Source: Escherichia phage CSP1C. From it: a DNA stretch of 55,550 nt. The translations under genes were made by a program, and so were the position numbers. The stretch lies in sequence record PQ202980; one strand, 5' to 3'. This document shows positions 32,580-52,360 of this stretch, piece by piece. The notes beneath the pieces were generated by a model. That model did not search any database. It had not been told where the DNA came from and saw only the letters and a list, made by a program, of their open reading frames with translations. Position 1 is the first letter of the stretch. Each line of letters starts with the position of its first letter.

Positions 32580-33488
32580 TCAATCTTTCCCGTAATAGTT
32601 AGCCACTTGATAGTTTTGACAACCAACTTTTTGACCCTGCGTATCTACTGCAACGGAATGGAAATTGCAATACCATGTTCCATCATCTTTTGGCTCAAGA
32701 AATTGACATGTGCGACAGTTTACTTCCGGCATAGTTTTACGCCAGCACAATGAGGCGTGATCGCACCATTTGCATTCGAAGAAGGTAGAGTCTTTGAATG
32801 CACGGTCAGGAATATCCGTAGCAATAGCAATCTGCACACCACGATCAATATACATGTCCGCAGTGACCGGATCAAATGGAATAATTTCTGCGTAAACTTC
32901 ATCATCGTTCTTGTTTACAGCAAGATATAACGCTGCGCCAAGTCCTAGCTTTCGCATGTACACGTTCATCTGTACATAGTGCTCAGGTTTAGCTTCTTTG
33001 ACACCTTTAGCTTTCAGTTTCTTGAAAGACTTATCGTTGTGGGTCTTCATTTCAGTAAGCACAGGCATCCCAGGCTGAACGTCCGGACAACCTATAACCA
33101 CACCATCGCAGGAACCGCCAAAGTGTCCGCCAGCTTCGCTAATACGGAACTGGTGTCCGTTTTCATCCTGCTGGTAGACCTGCATACCTGCCGCAAGAAG
33201 CATAGCAATGAAACGCGCTTCTTCCAGATGTCCGCGGTTAAATAGGCGGAGCTGGCGTCCATCGAACTCTTTACGAGTAGCCCAGCGATACCCGTAGAAC
33301 AGCTTGCGAGCACATTGTTGTCCAATAAGGGAAGCACCTAAGTGACTGCGGTTGCCGCTTTCGGGGCGATATGCGTCTTCAATTGTGGGAATGACTACGC
33401 CAAGATATTTACGGTAAGTCCCACCCTGATCTTTTTGCACACCGTCATTGATTGCTTGAAGTGTTTTTTCTGCAATATAAATAGCCAT
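32580..33488 (-). CDS. PD-(D/E)xK nuclease with C-terminal Cys cluster (Cas4/RecB-like exonuclease)
   Basis: DGVV...LTEMKTH D/E-K arrangement plus four C-terminal Cys (CKWCDHASLC, CRTC). Confidence 0.55.
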   Translation of the reverse strand: MAIYIAEKTLQAINDGVQKDQGGTYRKYLGVVIPTIEDAYRPESGNRSHLGASLIGQQCARKLFYGYRWATRKEFDGRQLRLFNRGHLEEARFIAMLLAAGMQVYQQDENGHQFRISEAGGHFGGSCDGVVIGCPDVQPGMPVLTEMKTHNDKSFKKLKAKGVKEAKPEHYVQMNVYMRKLGLGAALYLAVNKNDDEVYAEIIPFDPVTADMYIDRGVQIAIATDIPDRAFKDSTFFECKWCDHASLCWRKTMPEVNCRTCQFLEPKDDGTWYCNFHSVAVDTQGQKVGCQNYQVANYYGKD

Positions 33489-33499
33489 TGGAGTACCTT

Positions 33500-33527
33500 A
33501 GAAAAATAAGCCGTCTTTCGACGGCTT
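33500..33527 (-). terminator. rho-independent terminator
   Basis: AAGCCGT ctttcg ACGGCTT stem followed on the minus strand by TTATTTTTC. Confidence 0.55.
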
Positions 33528-33552
33528 AGGGACACTACAGAGGGAGGTTAAC

Positions 33553-34422
33553 TTACTGCTGCCACGGCGGGACTGCTGCTTGTGCCGGATGCGGTTCAGC
33601 TTGCTGCTGTGGCTGCGCTTGCTGCTGCGGTGCTGCTGCCTGACCCGGCTGTGCTACCTGCTGCGCCCATGGCTGCTGAGCTGCTTCCGGCGCTACTGGC
33701 TGTTGTACCGGAGCTTGCTGAACTGGCTGCTGCGGCGCTGCGTTTTGAGCAGGATTATCCCACGGCTGCGGTGCGGCATTCTGCCACGGTTGAGCTGCTG
33801 CGCCCTGCTGCGGTGCTGGTTGCTGAACAGGCTGCTGTTGCTGTACCGGAGCTTGCTGCTGTACAGGTGCTTGCTGTTGCTGAGCAAACGGGTTAGCTGC
33901 TGGCTGCTGCGGCGCTGCGCCCGGGAAAGTTGGCTGCTGTGCTGGCGCACCTGCACCGAACGGGTTAGCTACTGCTGGAGCGCCCATTGATGGAGCCTCT
34001 GCTGCTTTTTCTGCATACTTAACCGGATCGTTGATGTTAGCGTAACCGTTCGGCTCGTTGCTGTCTTCATAACCTTCCTGAGAACGAACTTTCAGACGCA
34101 GGTTCAGCGGAATGTTATGCAGTTGAGCAGGAGTATCCCAGCGAATTACACCTACTGCGTGGGAAAGTGCGCCCAGTTGCTCATAAGCGATACGCACAGT
34201 ATCTTCATTGTCGTTGATGACGTTGTAGCGAGCGAAGATTTTACGACCTTTAGCAAAACCGTCAATGATGCTAAACGTTACCTGGATCGCCATACCGCCA
34301 TTTTTGGTCGGTTTAAATTCAGATGCTTCAATTACTGCTTTATACCAACCTTTCGGCAATGCGCCGTAAGAAGGTGCTTGATAGCTGCTCGCGTCAAAGT
34401 GGAAATTAGTTGGCATAGTCAT
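33553..34422 (-). CDS. SSB-like (DUF669-type) protein with Q/P/A-rich C-terminal tail
   Basis: Globular N-terminal ~150 aa, then ~140 aa low-complexity tail with repeated PW motifs; adjacent and coupled to Sak4-like ATPase. Confidence 0.5.
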   Translation of the reverse strand: MTMPTNFHFDASSYQAPSYGALPKGWYKAVIEASEFKPTKNGGMAIQVTFSIIDGFAKGRKIFARYNVINDNEDTVRIAYEQLGALSHAVGVIRWDTPAQLHNIPLNLRLKVRSQEGYEDSNEPNGYANINDPVKYAEKAAEAPSMGAPAVANPFGAGAPAQQPTFPGAAPQQPAANPFAQQQQAPVQQQAPVQQQQPVQQPAPQQGAAAQPWQNAAPQPWDNPAQNAAPQQPVQQAPVQQPVAPEAAQQPWAQQVAQPGQAAAPQQQAQPQQQAEPHPAQAAVPPWQQ

Positions 34423-44441: not shown

Positions 44442-45105
44442 AGTTTTTGTAATCGCAAAACCTTCGCAAAACTTTGTCTTTCCTGCATTATATTAAACGA
44501 TAGTGCTAGTGGCCAGCATAGTGGCATCACCTCTTATAGTGCGCCGTTACTGGCTTCGCTATAGTGTGCCACTATACGCTCACTATACACTAATAACTAA
44601 TTTTATTTTGTTTAGTGGTAATAAAGTTTTGGGTTTTTGGGGGGGACCCCTATATATCCCGGGAAAAACAAAGAAATAGTAGTAGTAGTGAAAAACATAG
44701 TGAAATGCCACTATCCTCACTATCACTACCAATTTAATGTAATTCATGGGGGTGTCTATGTACCAAAAACCTAAAACTTTCAGTCAACAGGCTAAAAACG
44801 GATAGAAACTAAAAGTTAATAAGTAATAACATAAATATATATAAAATAAGGATTTATTAGTAATGTATATAGTACCTATTGATATTATTTGAATGTTTTT
44901 GGGTCATTGTTAAAAAGTCCCAAAACTCGCAAAACCTGAACGGATGCAGATCAAAAATGAGAAATCAAGTGCTTTTGAGGGAAATTTATTGAACTATTGT
45001 GATCGGAAGGTATATCAAGCTATAATGCGCTTAATCGCGGGATATTGGAGGAGGACTTTATTGCGCGGTTAACCGGACCAGTAGGAGGGCTGGCCCGGAA
45101 GTAGT
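44442..45105. promoter_or_regulatory. AT-rich repeat-dense non-coding region (candidate operator cluster / origin)
   Basis: About 660 bp without credible ORF; at least 6 CACTATA/TATAGTG heptamers, 3 copies of TCGCAAAAC, (AGT)4, a G7 run and a TATAAT-like box. Confidence 0.5.
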
Positions 45106-45432
45106 TTAGAGTTGTACAGGTGTGAAGTGGGCTAGCGTATCGTCGGACATAATACCCGACAGTTTTTCGCTTATCCAGTCGGACCAAATGCTATCCGGTT
45201 CCTGGCGGTGCACAAACCAGATTTCGGATGTGCCTTCTTTGCGCATCGGTTGCACTTCTGCAAGGAACTTGTCCTGCATAAGGCGGGTGAAGCAGACGCT
45301 GGTCATTGGAACCGGCTTTTCGTCTTTATTGTAATAAGGGAATAATATTTTATTTCCGAAGTCGGCAACTTCATAAACCGTTCCTTTACGAAGGCCTCTG
45401 ATGTCAGTGTAAGAGCGAATGAACTTTTTCAT
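45106..45432 (-). CDS. hypothetical protein
   Basis: 108 aa ORF. Confidence 0.45.
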   Translation of the reverse strand: MKKFIRSYTDIRGLRKGTVYEVADFGNKILFPYYNKDEKPVPMTSVCFTRLMQDKFLAEVQPMRKEGTSEIWFVHRQEPDSIWSDWISEKLSGIMSDDTLAHFTPVQL

Positions 45433-45434
45433 AT

Positions 45435-45611
45435 TTATTTCCTTACGAACACAGAGCCGACGAATAATGTTGACTGAGTGGCAGCTTGCTCGATTAATTC
45501 GCCAACAAGCTGGGACTGGTTTAGAGGTTTGAGGCCTTCTTTGGCGCGTGCTTCATTTACACGACGTTGAAGGTCTTTTAAGTATTGAGTTGCGAAGCTA
45601 TCTAATTGCAT
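45435..45611 (-). CDS. hypothetical small protein (58 aa, below ORF-track cutoff)
   Basis: ATG 45611 with SD AAGGA; tightly packed with neighbours. Confidence 0.35.
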   Translation of the reverse strand: MQLDSFATQYLKDLQRRVNEARAKEGLKPLNQSQLVGELIEQAATQSTLFVGSVFVRK

Positions 45612-45659
45612 CTTCTTATCCTTAGGGCTCCTGCAGAAGCCCGTCAGTGTGGTTATAGA

Positions 45660-45809
45660 TTATAGCGCTGCAAACATAAGCAGACGAATATTAACTGAAG
45701 TTTGGCTATTAAAGTCTTGACATTCTTTGATAATCTCTTCTTCACTTTTACCACTAAGTTTAGAATATTCTGTGATTGCTTGTTTTAATACAGAATCAAA
45801 ATTGTTCAT
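45660..45809 (-). CDS. hypothetical small protein (49 aa, below ORF-track cutoff)
   Basis: ATG 45809 with strong SD AAGGAGG at optimal spacing. Confidence 0.4.
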   Translation of the reverse strand: MNNFDSVLKQAITEYSKLSGKSEEEIIKECQDFNSQTSVNIRLLMFAAL

Positions 45810-45819
45810 TTTATCCTCC

Positions 45820-46434
45820 TTATGCGTCCAGGCCGTTATATTTGCGCCAGGCGTAGAACTGAATGGCTACCGTCGTCCCGTTGTAAGAAGGCATTGCAGC
45901 TTTCATCTCTTTCAGTTCCGGCGTGCGGCCCAGTTCCTTCAGAAGCTTGTCACCCATTGCCCACACTTCGGCAGTTTTTCCTTTCAGAGGCTTGCGAGCG
46001 CCATTTTTGAAATCACAGCGAGCAGCTTTTACATCTTGTTTTGGCGCGGCAGCTTTTGGCTCTTCAATTTTAATTTCAGAAACCGGCTTGGCAGCTTTTT
46101 CGTGTTTCATATCTTTCTCTTCCTCCTGCTCCAAAGCTTCGAGGCAGCTTTTGACGATTTCCGGATTTACCATCGGGCGCAGTACCGAGACGCTAGCAGC
46201 TGGCGCGGCGGTCGGTGCTGGGACTTTCTGCTCGGGCTTTTGAGCTTTTTCGTGATCGCGCAGCACCTGAAGGACTTCCTTTTCGACGATGTAAAAACCG
46301 ATATCGTCCTGATGGATTAACTGTTCGTGTGCGTCGCGTGCAACCTGACCCCAGCGAGTTTTAAGGGCGCGGCGTGCATTGGTCTTCATGGTGTAACGCA
46401 TTTTGTCCTGTTCGCGGTGAGTTACTTTAGACAT
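45820..46434 (-). CDS. hypothetical protein with Lys/Ala-rich linker and conserved C-terminal domain (paralogue of 29116..29919 C-terminus)
   Basis: ATG 46434 with SD AAAGGAG; C-terminal TVAIQFYAWRKYNG matches TVKTQYARWKKFNG. Confidence 0.5.
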   Translation of the reverse strand: MSKVTHREQDKMRYTMKTNARRALKTRWGQVARDAHEQLIHQDDIGFYIVEKEVLQVLRDHEKAQKPEQKVPAPTAAPAASVSVLRPMVNPEIVKSCLEALEQEEEKDMKHEKAAKPVSEIKIEEPKAAAPKQDVKAARCDFKNGARKPLKGKTAEVWAMGDKLLKELGRTPELKEMKAAMPSYNGTTVAIQFYAWRKYNGLDA

Positions 46435-46507
46435 GGTATAGCTCCTTTCGTTAAAGTTAGTTTGCTTATTATTGCCTACCGTGATAGTAGGCAAGGTATA
46501 AGAAAAC

Positions 46508-46756
46508 TTATTGCACGATTGCTACGAAATCGGCGGTTGCGATATCCATGCTTGCGAAAGCAACGATGCTATAGTCGGTGTCGTTTTCGGCGTTAAACGC
46601 TTTGAGGAACTGCTGTACCGCTGCTTTATGGTTAAGCGTTACGTCGATAGCATAGTCCCAGCTATAGACTTTGCGCTTGCCAAAACCTTTAACTGCAATG
46701 CGCGCGCCTTTGGTGTTAGTTGGTGCCAAAAATTTGGTGATGATAGAAGTAGCCAT
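46508..46756 (-). CDS. hypothetical protein
   Basis: 82 aa ORF preceded by a palindromic promoter-like element. Confidence 0.45.
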   Translation of the reverse strand: MATSIITKFLAPTNTKGARIAVKGFGKRKVYSWDYAIDVTLNHKAAVQQFLKAFNAENDTDYSIVAFASMDIATADFVAIVQ

Positions 46757-46829
46757 GATGTATATCCTCGTTTTGTTTAAGTTGACTTATTATTGCCCAG
46801 TCAGATCAACTAGGCAAGATATAAATCAC

Positions 46830-46979
46830 TTAATTTGTAATTTTATCTACACAGTAGTCAGCATCAAATTCCGCCGGACTAATGCCCAATTTGTCAATTG
46901 CAGCCGCTTCAGCTTCAACGAAATTGTTGGCTTCAATGAACGCGACGATAACACCGTATTTATTAATAACTTCGTACAT
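46830..46979 (-). CDS. hypothetical small protein (49 aa)
   Basis: ATG 46979; product MYEVINKYGVIVAFIEANNFVEAEAAAIDK resembles the adjacent small ORF. Confidence 0.35.
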   Translation of the reverse strand: MYEVINKYGVIVAFIEANNFVEAEAAAIDKLGISPAEFDADYCVDKITN

Positions 46980-46982
46980 GGT

Positions 46983-47138
46983 CTAGCCCTTAATTTGTAC
47001 CAAATCGTATTCCTTGTAAATTTCGCTAATGTACATATCGAACTGGCCCATTAAGAAGATTTCGGCCTCCTCCCAGCTTGGAGCAGATACATAACCAGCT
47101 ATTTTACCGGACGCGAGTTCCACTAATTTAAATTCCAT
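46983..47138 (-). CDS. hypothetical small protein (51 aa)
   Basis: ATG 47138 with SD AAGGGT; product MEFKLVELASGKIAGYVSAPSWEEAEIFLMG. Confidence 0.4.
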   Translation of the reverse strand: MEFKLVELASGKIAGYVSAPSWEEAEIFLMGQFDMYISEIYKEYDLVQIKG

Positions 47139-47350
47139 GATGCAACCCTTAATGTGGTTAAGCAGTATTGCTTTGTTGAAGTAATAATAGCCTTGCATCG
47201 TGATATTGAATAGGCCAAAAGTGCTATTTTGATATTGTTTTGCATCTAGTGAAAATTATGCTTGCCCTGCATGTTTAGCACAAACGGCCTAATTAACATC
47301 ACATCATCTGGAGTATTCGCGCGGGCGCACACATGCTTATAAGGTGGTGC

Positions 47351-47466
47351 CGGATCGACCAGGTGGGAGCGGTGCACAGGATCGACCAGGGGCATCCGGC
47401 GCCCTGCGTGCGCGGAGCCTACCAGGTGGAAGCAGCTCCTGCGTGTGCCGGAAATACCAGGGGCGC
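47351..47466. repeat. GC-rich degenerate direct repeats containing ACCAGG(T)GG (4 copies)
   Basis: ACCAGG cores at 47358, 47385, 47421 and 47456, each in a related 15-20 nt context, inside an otherwise AT-rich intergenic region. Confidence 0.55.
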
Positions 47467-47516
47467 GCGAGCCCATGCACTTTACAAAATATTTTTATAA
47501 AAAGTGCAAAAAGGTG

Positions 47517-47560
47517 TAGACACATGATCGGTCTAGCACTACTATATACACATACCGCAA
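47517..47560 (+). promoter_or_regulatory. promoter/operator-like element TAGACACATGATCGGTCTAG
   Basis: Palindromic AGAC-N-GTCT element with GATC core about 60 nt upstream of the ATG at 47597; near-identical copy at 48357. Confidence 0.45.
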
Positions 47561-47596
47561 GGGTACTACAAATTAACTAATTCACGGGGGTACAAA

Positions 47597-47860
47597 ATGG
47601 TCCGCATCCTGGAACGTTATAAAAACGAAGCTACTGGCGCTATTGCATTCAAACGTATGTTAGTAAAACAAATCGACGGTTTATACCGTGTTGTTAAAGA
47701 AGTCGATTACGGCAACGGCGCAGGGGTGAGCACCACTATCGTCCCGGGCATTAAAGCGTATAAAACTTTAAAAGGTGCCGAGAAAGCCTTAGCCGCCTGG
47801 AAACCTGCTCGTTATCAAATGTCTCGTGTCGAAGGGCTTATGCAGGAAGGTAAAATCTAA
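47597..47860 (+). CDS. hypothetical protein
   Basis: 87 aa, first gene of the + strand block. Confidence 0.5.
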   Translation: MVRILERYKNEATGAIAFKRMLVKQIDGLYRVVKEVDYGNGAGVSTTIVPGIKAYKTLKGAEKALAAWKPARYQMSRVEGLMQEGKI

Positions 47861-47925
47861 GTTTGTTTATACAATGGGCATTAATACAGTGCCCATTAAG
47901 CTAACTAATCATATCGAGGTGTATT

Positions 47926-48210
47926 ATGTCCATCGTTACTATGTCGTTCTTCGACCATTGCAATAACGAAAAACAAATTATTGTTAACCTGCAAAAAGGG
48001 CTGGTTATCGCACGCAATGCTAACCGCCAATGCATCGCGCTAACCGATTTTGCTTTCCGCCTTAACGTGGACAACACCACCGCCAAAAATATCGTTCACG
48101 ATACAGCGATGGAAGCCGCTCATGCTGCGAAGGATAAAGGTATCCGCGCAGCACGCGAAATCATGCACAAAGCGCTCGGCATCACGTTCTTCGTTGGCAT
48201 TAAGGGGTAA
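47926..48210 (+). CDS. hypothetical protein
   Basis: 94 aa ORF. Confidence 0.45.
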   Translation: MSIVTMSFFDHCNNEKQIIVNLQKGLVIARNANRQCIALTDFAFRLNVDNTTAKNIVHDTAMEAAHAAKDKGIRAAREIMHKALGITFFVGIKG

Positions 48211-48215
48211 CTACT

Positions 48216-48359
48216 ATGGCACGCAAATACTCGCTTACACGCGCACAGCACGCGTTATTATTGCAGGTTATGCGCATGAAGTACGAAAAGACTACATGGG
48301 CGCAAGCCATGCAGACAGGGCGCGAGTTCTACGCGCAATTAATAGCACAAAATGCCTAG
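48216..48359 (+). CDS. hypothetical small protein (47 aa)
   Basis: ATG 48216 six nt after the upstream stop; product MARKYSLTRAQHALLLQVMRMKYEK. Confidence 0.35.
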   Translation: MARKYSLTRAQHALLLQVMRMKYEKTTWAQAMQTGREFYAQLIAQNA

Positions 48360-48400
48360 ACAACATGATCGGTCTGGTGGATACTACACACATCAACCAA
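48357..48400 (+). promoter_or_regulatory. second copy of TAGACA-CATGATCGGTCT promoter/operator-like element
   Basis: TAGACAACATGATCGGTCTGG about 60 nt upstream of the ATG at 48418. Confidence 0.45.
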
Positions 48401-48417
48401 ACAACGGGGTAAACAAA

Positions 48418-48657
48418 ATGCGTAGTTTCAAATGTGTAAGCGTAAACGATAATGCTAAGGCTAGTGCTAAGGGTCTGTTCACAGTAGGTAAAGTGTATGA
48501 CTTCAACATGGAAAGTTATATACACATAACCCTCACGGGCGTAATGTTCGGCGACGTTGGTGCTGTACGCTGCGATTTAAACAAGTACACGGAAAAGGAA
48601 TATGCTCTTATCAGCCGCTACACGGGCGAGCCGTTAGCTGTGTTCCATGCAGCTTAA
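48418..48657 (+). CDS. hypothetical protein
   Basis: 79 aa from ATG 48418; the track's upstream extension is rejected. Confidence 0.45.
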   Translation: MRSFKCVSVNDNAKASAKGLFTVGKVYDFNMESYIHITLTGVMFGDVGAVRCDLNKYTEKEYALISRYTGEPLAVFHAA

Positions 48658-48729
48658 GCTATAACGCACACAGCGCCACGCTAGCGAGCTAATGTACATA
48701 GGCAATGGTAATGCATTAGCTCGGGCGAA

Positions 48730-48920
48730 ACAGGCGCACAGCGTCGCGCACAGCTCGCACAGCGCACACCGACCCACGCAGGCCCAGCCGCGCGACCCGA
48801 CCCATCCTTTTCCAGGTACTTGGAGCGCCGGGGCGTGCCCTGTCCATCCTGATAGTAAGTGCTTGTCTAAATCTCACCCATCACATAGCCTATCCACCTA
48901 CATCCATGACCCCACCTACC
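48730..48920. repeat. GC-rich short tandem repeats (CGCACAGC x3; CCACCTAC x2)
   Basis: gcgcacagcgtcgcgcacagctcgcacagcgcacacc and ccacctacatccatgaccccacctacc within a 430 bp gene-free interval. Confidence 0.5.
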
Positions 48921-51937: not shown

Positions 51938-52360
51938 ATGATTAAACATGTCAAACAGCCAACTTTAAATACATGCGTTTCTGCGTGTTTGGCAATGATC
52001 CTTAATAGACCTGTAGAAGAAGTAATTGCGGAATTTCATGATCGATATTACAACAACTGGGAAATAACAATTTCCGAATATTTAGTACAAAACAATGTTG
52101 ACCACATCTGTTCTGTGGGCGGTGGGCGTGAGACTATATACATGGGTGGTTTGTTTTTGTGCACTGTCCCAAGTCTCAATGTTCCTGGAGCACTGCATCA
52201 GGTTGTGATCGATACAACTAATCACAAGTTTATTGTACATGACCCAATTAAAGGTTGGGAAGGTAAAAAGTTCTACGTTGGCCCGGATCAAGATCCTGAA
52301 CAGCCAGGAGCATTTATCATTCATACTTGGGTTAAAGACGTTGAGATTGTGCTTAATTAA
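51938..52360 (+). CDS. papain-fold cysteine peptidase, C39-like
   Basis: N-terminal KQPTLNTCVSACLAMIL matches the C39 Q-x5-C..ACLAMI signature; downstream HQVVID and IVHDP give candidate His/Asp. Confidence 0.5.
   Translation: MIKHVKQPTLNTCVSACLAMILNRPVEEVIAEFHDRYYNNWEITISEYLVQNNVDHICSVGGGRETIYMGGLFLCTVPSLNVPGALHQVVIDTTNHKFIVHDPIKGWEGKKFYVGPDQDPEQPGAFIIHTWVKDVEIVLN

Follow-up and report, generated by a model that had tools for sequence, protein, structure and literature searches.

A dispensable GC-rich repeat array with a conserved ACCAGG core between divergent early genes of phage CSP1C and its relatives

Introduction

What is the function of a short, GC-rich island of direct repeats lying in the 398-nt gap between two divergent gene blocks (first minus-strand gene up to 47,198, first plus-strand gene from 47,597) of CSP1C, a phage of E. 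coli and Cronobacter? CSP1C belongs with the Queuovirinae, which are common coliphages that have been studied for their 7-deazaguanine DNA; to our knowledge next to nothing has been established about how their early genes are regulated, where their replication starts or how their genomes end. Here we describe the island as a conserved yet dispensable motif array in an apparent master early control region, inside an inferred terminal repeat. Natural variants with 0, 1, 3 and 4 units make the function of the array directly testable, and CSP1 is genetically tractable by Cas9 editing (PMC13577005).

CSP1C is a clear-plaque mutant of CSP1 with a 55,550-bp genome, described in a paper dated 2025, and differs from CSP1 by a 4,672-bp deletion and five point mutations (PMC13577005). 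CSP1 itself is a Cronobacter phage (KY982929.1) of Seuratvirus, subfamily Queuovirinae, and megablast assigns the region to it. The window has exactly the published CSP1C length and carries one of the published point mutations, at 47,411, and is therefore the complete CSP1C genome.

Results and Discussion

A single family of four same-strand repeats

The array (47,347-47,469) is composed of four degenerate 25-nt copies of one repeat family, all on the same strand, with a consensus of approximately GYGYSCGRANNKACCAGGKR and a spacing of 27, 36 and 35 nt (Table 1). All four repeat strings quoted in the first-pass annotation were found where it had placed them, and its description of a GC-rich island was also borne out: the most GC-rich 136-nt stretch of the genome starts at 47343 and contains 70.6% G+C, against 44.8% genome-wide. 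The copies are 68-76% identical to the reference copy, a degree of degeneracy that keeps Tandem Repeats Finder from calling the array. The motif ACCAGGKG has four matches on the two strands of the 55,550-bp genome, all within the island, which also holds four of the six plus-strand occurrences of ACCAGG. A 22-nt weight matrix derived from the units scores the four of them at 25-31 bits, with the next-best site in the genome at 11 bits. By a Poisson estimate, the chance of at least four ACCAGG words within about 104 nt anywhere in the genome is approximately 3e-6, and when the island was shuffled with preservation of dinucleotides, some 6-mer reached at least four copies in 32 of 5000 shuffles.

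Table 1. Coordinates of the repeat array and surrounding features in CSP1C.
Feature	Position	Strand	Basis or remark
GC-rich island with repeat array	47340-47475	+	69% G+C
Repeat unit 1, GTGCCGGATCGACCAGGTGGGAGCG	47347-47371	+	repeat search; least conserved unit
Repeat unit 2, GCACAGGATCGACCAGGGGCATCCG	47374-47398	+	repeat search and alignment
Repeat unit 3, GCGCGGAGCCTACCAGGTGGAAGCA	47410-47434	+	holds the CSP1C-specific T-to-C change at 47411
Repeat unit 4, GTGCCGGAAATACCAGGGGCGCGCG	47445-47469	+	repeat search and relatives
AT-rich tract	47481-47514	+	directly after the island, upstream of the rightward promoter-like site; invariant in all relatives
Rightward sigma-70-like site, TAGACA-17-TACTAT	47517-47545	+	promoter scan; conserved; upstream of gene 47597-47860
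Two overlapping leftward promoter-like candidates	47226-47283	-	read by eye; putative
Inferred direct terminal repeat enclosing the island	44714-48841		homology to ECP2304; about 4.1 kb

Four open reading frames of 55-78 aa overlap the island. The first-pass annotation had counted three and dismissed them as artefacts; the count was one short, and the dismissal holds in that the frames are not conserved. Relatives carry 1-nt and 27-nt indels in the stretch or lack it entirely, and a protein-coding gene was rejected on the basis of these broken frames. Hypothetical protein genes are drawn over the island in the GenBank records of KS_A8, Dru_SM1 and CAjan, with spans at 357-506 and 521-691 (L002), 357-506, 519-611 and 635-733 (L003) and 482-691 (L004); the hypothetical genes annotated here in several records are probably spurious calls in GC-rich non-coding DNA. 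Elsewhere in CSP1C, a 1-kb stretch at about 33001-34000, within the minus-strand replication/modification module, has 55.5% G+C and contains 136-nt windows of up to 69% G+C at about 33558.

Promoter-like sites and a predicted terminal repeat

Promoter-like sites, found by a sequence scan and by eye and treated here as candidates, bracket the island, and the array copies lie upstream of them in one shared orientation. On the right, the array ends 47 nt before the -35 element of the sigma-70-like site, in agreement with the earlier remark that it sits just upstream of the first plus-strand promoter element, and the AT-rich tract preceding that site may be UP-element-like. On the left, the two candidates are TTGTGC-17-CATAAT (47283 to 47255) and TTCACT-16-CAAAAT (47253 to 47226), positioned in a block that is conserved across all Seuratviruses; the array begins 64 nt beyond the nearer -35 candidate. 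Neither leftward candidate was called in the promoter scan of the region.

Additional repeated words are found around these sites. A 27-nt imperfect inverted repeat (47200-47226/47276-47302) brackets the leftward promoter-like block, and the word TAGCAC is present at 47276 and at 47534, between the rightward -35 and -10 elements, with its reverse complement at about 47221. TAGCAC(T) also occurs in the intergenic region of phage 9g, and these repeated sequences could serve some other regulator as an operator. The AT-rich tract lies within an 8-bp inverted repeat free of mismatches, TGCACTTT...AAAGTGCA (47476-47483/47501-47508), which is found only in phages with the CSP1-type island. Its left arm is the right edge of the island, and its right arm needs a linked 1-nt deletion (AAAAAG-TGC, versus AAAAAGATGC in other phages).

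The record of the Seuratvirus ECP2304 contains an exact 3,695-bp duplication at both ends, which maps to approximately 44,714-48,841 of CSP1C and so places the island about 2.6 kb inside a direct terminal repeat. For CSP1 and CSP1C this repeat is mapped by homology from ECP2304; their published sequences are described as circular and contain a single copy of it. On the ECP2304 map, the control region would be present in both terminal copies, with the rightward promoter of the left copy predicted to read into the plus-strand arm and the leftward promoter of the right copy predicted to read into the minus-strand replication genes. Read in this way, the gap between the divergent genes would act as a master early control region.

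Two further features lie near the mapped boundaries of the repeat. A second GC-rich spot with 69% G+C and short tandem repeats of the GCGCACAGC type (48734-48768) is found about 75-100 nt before the right boundary. Many CACTAT/ATAGTG-type words (for example tatagtgtgccactatacgctcactataca and gccactatcctcactatcactacc) and a G7/C4 tract occur at 44500-44735, in a 636-nt non-coding gap that also contains the left boundary; this stretch may be a terminase or end-processing region.

Copy number and core conservation among Seuratviruses

The comparison set comprised 26 Seuratvirus records that match the region or its flanks, in which the number of units is 0, 1, 3 or 4. Three or four units are present in nine records (CSP1, KS_A8, Dru_SM1, CAjan in two records, Greed, SLUR25, SLUR63 and GottfriedDienst), and one unit or a degenerate remnant in four (ECP2304, SeppeHuegi, KS_W4 and SA126VB), while in the remaining 13 the island is missing and both flanks are kept. 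At least 12 close and viable Seuratviruses are free of the island. All five island-less phages that were read, including the divergent Hafnia phage yong3, show one identical junction, CATATAAAGCTG joined to CCAAAATATT, which looks like a single deletion of a SLUR25-type island that was later spread by recombination. In Greed, which has three units, the first is composed of the left half of unit 1 and the right half of unit 2, and judged from such sequences the changes in copy number look like repeat-mediated recombination. Unit 1 is degenerate in SLUR25, and the stretch GCCGGAAATACCAGG of unit 4 is unchanged in every array-bearing Seuratvirus read.

Within the arrays, conservation is concentrated in the hexamer. 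Across five lineages, units 2-4 show no change in any of their 18 ACCAGG columns, compared with 41 invariant columns among the remaining 77 of the island (Fisher p = 6e-5), and the spacers have diverged by up to about 30%. The ACCAGG core is under purifying selection, with the proviso that some of its conservation could stem from a recent horizontal transfer of the array among phages infecting the same cell. The island itself is dispensable and varies in copy number. Conservation in related phages, one of the checks proposed in the first-pass annotation, is found for the core and fails for the island as a whole, which is missing in half of the records.

A syntenic array in Nonagvirus

An array is also found in a second genus at the syntenic site. 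In Nonagvirus phages (9g, SE1, HdK1, JenK1, JenP2 and others) the array has three units, GYGYCGRAMATACCAGGTARC, spaced 26-27 nt apart; it shares its orientation and its divergent intergenic region with the CSP1C array, but the flanks no longer align. A 19-nt stretch is identical to CSP1C unit 4, in which GTGTGCCGGAAATACCAGG is an exact match to unit 1 of the Nonagvirus array, and the two arrays share the core plus a 5' arm, GTGYCGRAMATACCAGG, as well as a location inside the terminal repeat. The Nonagvirus array differs in having three units at tighter spacing, a lower G+C content and no flanking inverted repeats. Of 18 Nonagvirus records, 16 gave almost full-length matches at 94-100% identity; JenP1 is without the array.

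Beyond Seuratvirus and Nonagvirus nothing comparable was found in IMG/VR, in metagenomes, in one genome per bacterial species or in 5,426 E. coli genomes, and apparent hits elsewhere were contigs derived from related phages or unrelated coding repeats. Loose two- and three-unit scans of IMG/VR and bacterial genomes returned mostly chance or coding-repeat matches, and the weight-matrix filter left Nonagvirus-type arrays only; the metagenome scan gave one Nonagvirus contig, one Seuratvirus contig and one unrelated 21-nt coding repeat. In the more distant phages STP-SP5 and Vid5, the surroundings of the homologous early operon contain no array of this kind. A host-derived repeat was rejected, there being zero matches in the 5,426 E. 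coli genomes, and so was a REP/MITE-like mobile element, since the array occupies a single phage locus and is absent from the same genomes. We found no description of the array in the papers searched and read on CSP1, the BASEL collection, Nonagvirus or Queuovirinae. It is a new, lineage-restricted example of a familiar class, repeat arrays in phage regulatory regions.

A Nonagvirus-type array was also observed on a short contig (NZ_MPDK01000056.1, L454; 3,487 bp) of a Sulfoacidibacillus thermotolerans assembly. Its length is close to that of a Nonagvirus terminal repeat, and the contig most likely stems from coliphage DNA contaminating the assembly.

The array as a set of predicted protein-binding sites

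Given the many close relatives without the island, it is most likely, as judged from sequence comparison, a site where protein docks and that the phage can do without, rather than an origin of replication. The selected core, the conserved 5' arm, the constant orientation, the position between divergent early promoter-like sites, conserved in two genera, and the copy-number recombination together point to recognition by a protein that reads a non-palindromic site in double-stranded DNA. As expected for a binding array, each unit has a conserved core, the spacers vary freely and the core is common to two genera, so that of the two resemblances suggested in the first-pass annotation, an array of factor-binding sites is the one that fits best, with binding itself a prediction. 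A point against this reading is the spacing, which neither in CSP1C (27/36/35 nt) nor in Nonagvirus (27/26 nt) amounts to whole turns of the helix.

We tentatively propose that the island acts in cis as an accessory set of sites at which protein binds and thereby tunes the early control region, the most probable of the explanations weighed, though with less than even odds. The units would all be recognised by one sequence-specific DNA-binding protein, which could be encoded among the early genes of the phage or belong to the host, each unit of about 20 bp constituting a non-palindromic site around the ACCAGG core. Placed ahead of the two divergent early promoters, within the master early control region and the terminal repeat, the occupied array would tune early transcription or local DNA architecture and would not be needed for growth, while unequal crossing-over and deletion would alter the number of units between 0 and 4. 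This proposal presumes that the flanking promoter-like sites are real early promoters and that the effect of the array is on transcription. The existence of at least 12 close relatives without an array implies that any such effect is modulatory, subtle or conditional.

The E. coli rrnB P1 promoter, which has three Fis sites upstream of its UP element, offers a partial parallel. In both cases protein sites (predicted ones in CSP1C) are arranged in a row at an irregular spacing of about 30-40 bp, followed by an AT-rich UP-like tract and a strong sigma-70 promoter, likewise a predicted one in CSP1C. However, the CSP1C units are GC-rich with no match to the Fis consensus, and the array is positioned between two divergent promoters and is dispensed with by relatives.

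The first alternative is that the island is functionless at present, either the decaying remains of some ancestral element or a stretch of GC-rich DNA that was inserted and hitch-hiked, kept in some lineages by chance and spread by recombination. Its absence from 13 of 26 flank-matching records, its reduction to one unit or a remnant in four more and the degenerate unit 1 of SLUR25 would all be expected under neutrality, and the CSP1C substitution inside the island has no phenotype attributed to it (PMC13577005). Neutral decay nevertheless appears unlikely: the hexamer cores are invariant beside diverged spacers, the motif is kept in a second genus, where it is nearly universal, despite flanks that cannot be aligned, and the G+C content of the island remains 25 percentage points above that of the genome, which drift should erode.

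Neighbouring genes and a possible replication origin

If the array were instead a replication origin, the repeats would be iterons for a phage initiator and the AT-rich tract an unwinding element. Iterons are found at plasmid and phage origins, including lambda ori, P4 ori/crr and SaPI ori, and the CSP1C array resembles them as short direct repeats of one orientation and variable copy number beside an AT-rich stretch. The locus is also positioned at the switch in gene orientation, near the minimum of cumulative GC skew, with a primase/helicase gene about 4 kb away. In contrast to iterons, the array lacks a regular spacing of about two helical turns and is out of helical phase in both genera. 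Moreover, the primase/helicase exists as two alleles with an identity of about 77%, each of which is found in phages with an array and in phages without one, and on this independence the gene was rejected as a partner of the array. No initiator-like gene was found among the neighbours of the island, and none of the genes tested co-varies with the array. The first-pass annotation had itself named absence from close relatives as grounds against its reading, and by that standard the iteron half of its suggestion, as a required origin, does not survive the viable Seuratviruses without an island. An essential iteron origin is disfavoured, and we consider an origin of this type very unlikely.

A partner for the predicted protein-binding array was likewise sought among the early genes. 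None of ten neighbouring early proteins reaches the Pfam or NCBIfam threshold, and the two early proteins searched against the PDB returned no relatives. A 204-aa early protein (45,820-46,434, minus strand) gives a sub-threshold match at its C-terminus to the HNH_repeat helix-turn-helix (E = 0.048); it is conserved across Queuovirinae and was rejected as a co-varying partner because it occurs with or without the array. In Pantoea phage Vid5 the tblastn match to this protein (L333 2432-3001) is on the strand opposite the annotated genes, and the annotation of that block may be on the wrong strand.

The first rightward gene (47597-47860) encodes an 87-aa protein (phrog_27467) and is missing from many Seuratviruses. 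Gene and island co-occur in seven of eight Seuratvirus records, the exception being Dru_SM1, where the gene is missing. The protein is 86-90% identical to that of a gene in unrelated 68-72-kb Wifcevirus myoviruses, and the gene therefore appears to be a horizontally exchanged early gene. It was rejected as a partner, the association being one of linkage only: Dru_SM1 and Nonagvirus are without the gene, and Wifcevirus has it.

Possible functions at the DNA ends

The location of the island inside the inferred terminal repeat raises a further possibility, that it serves the repeat itself as a pause or stop signal for DNA entry, in the pairing of the terminal copies or in duplication of the repeat during packaging. 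Nonagvirus HdK1 has a 3,367-bp terminal duplication that includes its array, which ends about 220 nt from the inner boundary and is thus sub-terminal at the right end of virion DNA. In ECP2304, however, about 1 kb separates the single-unit island from the inner boundary, its distance to the left end being 2.6 kb, and for the mapped CSP1C island the inner boundary is about 1.4 kb away; these distances differ, so position relative to the ends is not conserved. In addition, yong3 keeps the same terminal repeat without the island. We judge a terminal-repeat function to be improbable, to about the same degree as an origin.

The terminal repeat of phage T5 contains a repeat-rich non-coding region that has been proposed as an injection stop signal. 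The Seuratvirus island is similar as a set of non-coding repeats within a long terminal repeat whose genes are the first to be expressed, but it is located in the middle of the repeat and its size is only a small fraction of that of the T5 region. For Queuovirinae we know of no demonstration of two-step DNA transfer and of no description of a DNA-end function for such an array. A cis element bound by an early phage protein and acting on the DNA ends, through a T5-like two-step entry pause or through pairing of copies leading to concatemers, is slightly less probable again.

A transcribed element and other rejected classes

The array could also be transcribed, as a small RNA or a 5' leader in which repeated loops bind an RNA-binding protein. 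The scan detected a weak plus-strand promoter-like site upstream of the island (47229-47256), and a predicted plus-strand promoter is annotated just upstream of the array in the 9g record. In each of units 2-4, ACCAGG can fall in the loop of a hairpin, and compensatory changes are seen at two pairs of the unit-3 stem, both from a single lineage. Against these observations, the folding energy is ordinary (z = -1.3 for the plus strand and -0.1 for the minus strand), the covariation term is only -0.79 kcal/mol, no terminator follows, and the hairpins are not conserved in Nonagvirus although the motif is. Rfam gave no match, even at a permissive threshold, and no tRNA was found in the region. A structured non-coding RNA was rejected on these grounds, and a transcribed element is the least probable of the explanations that we weighed.

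In CRISPR arrays, repeats of 23-47 nt are nearly identical and alternate with unique spacers about as long as themselves; a CRISPR array or solitary repeat was rejected, the copies being 68-76% identical and the 25-nt units only 2-11 nt apart. The motifs of Chi, sigma-54, RutR, FadR/GntR-type operators, Fis, IHF and the CsrA GGA were rejected as well, with at most half-site likeness that is unconserved in Nonagvirus.

Differences between CSP1C and CSP1

Relative to KY982929.1, CSP1C has C for T at 47,411, inside unit 3 of the island, where all relatives have T; after allowing for indels, this change corresponds to the published 'T to C at 52,083' (PMC13577005). Three differences, all non-coding, were observed over the 10 kb compared, the other two being an extra A at about 44457 and a G-to-A change at 44646 within a G-run. 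Four of the five published CSP1C point mutations are intergenic, and the three differences observed fall in or beside the inferred terminal repeat, a clustering that could reflect differences between repeat copies or local hypermutability.
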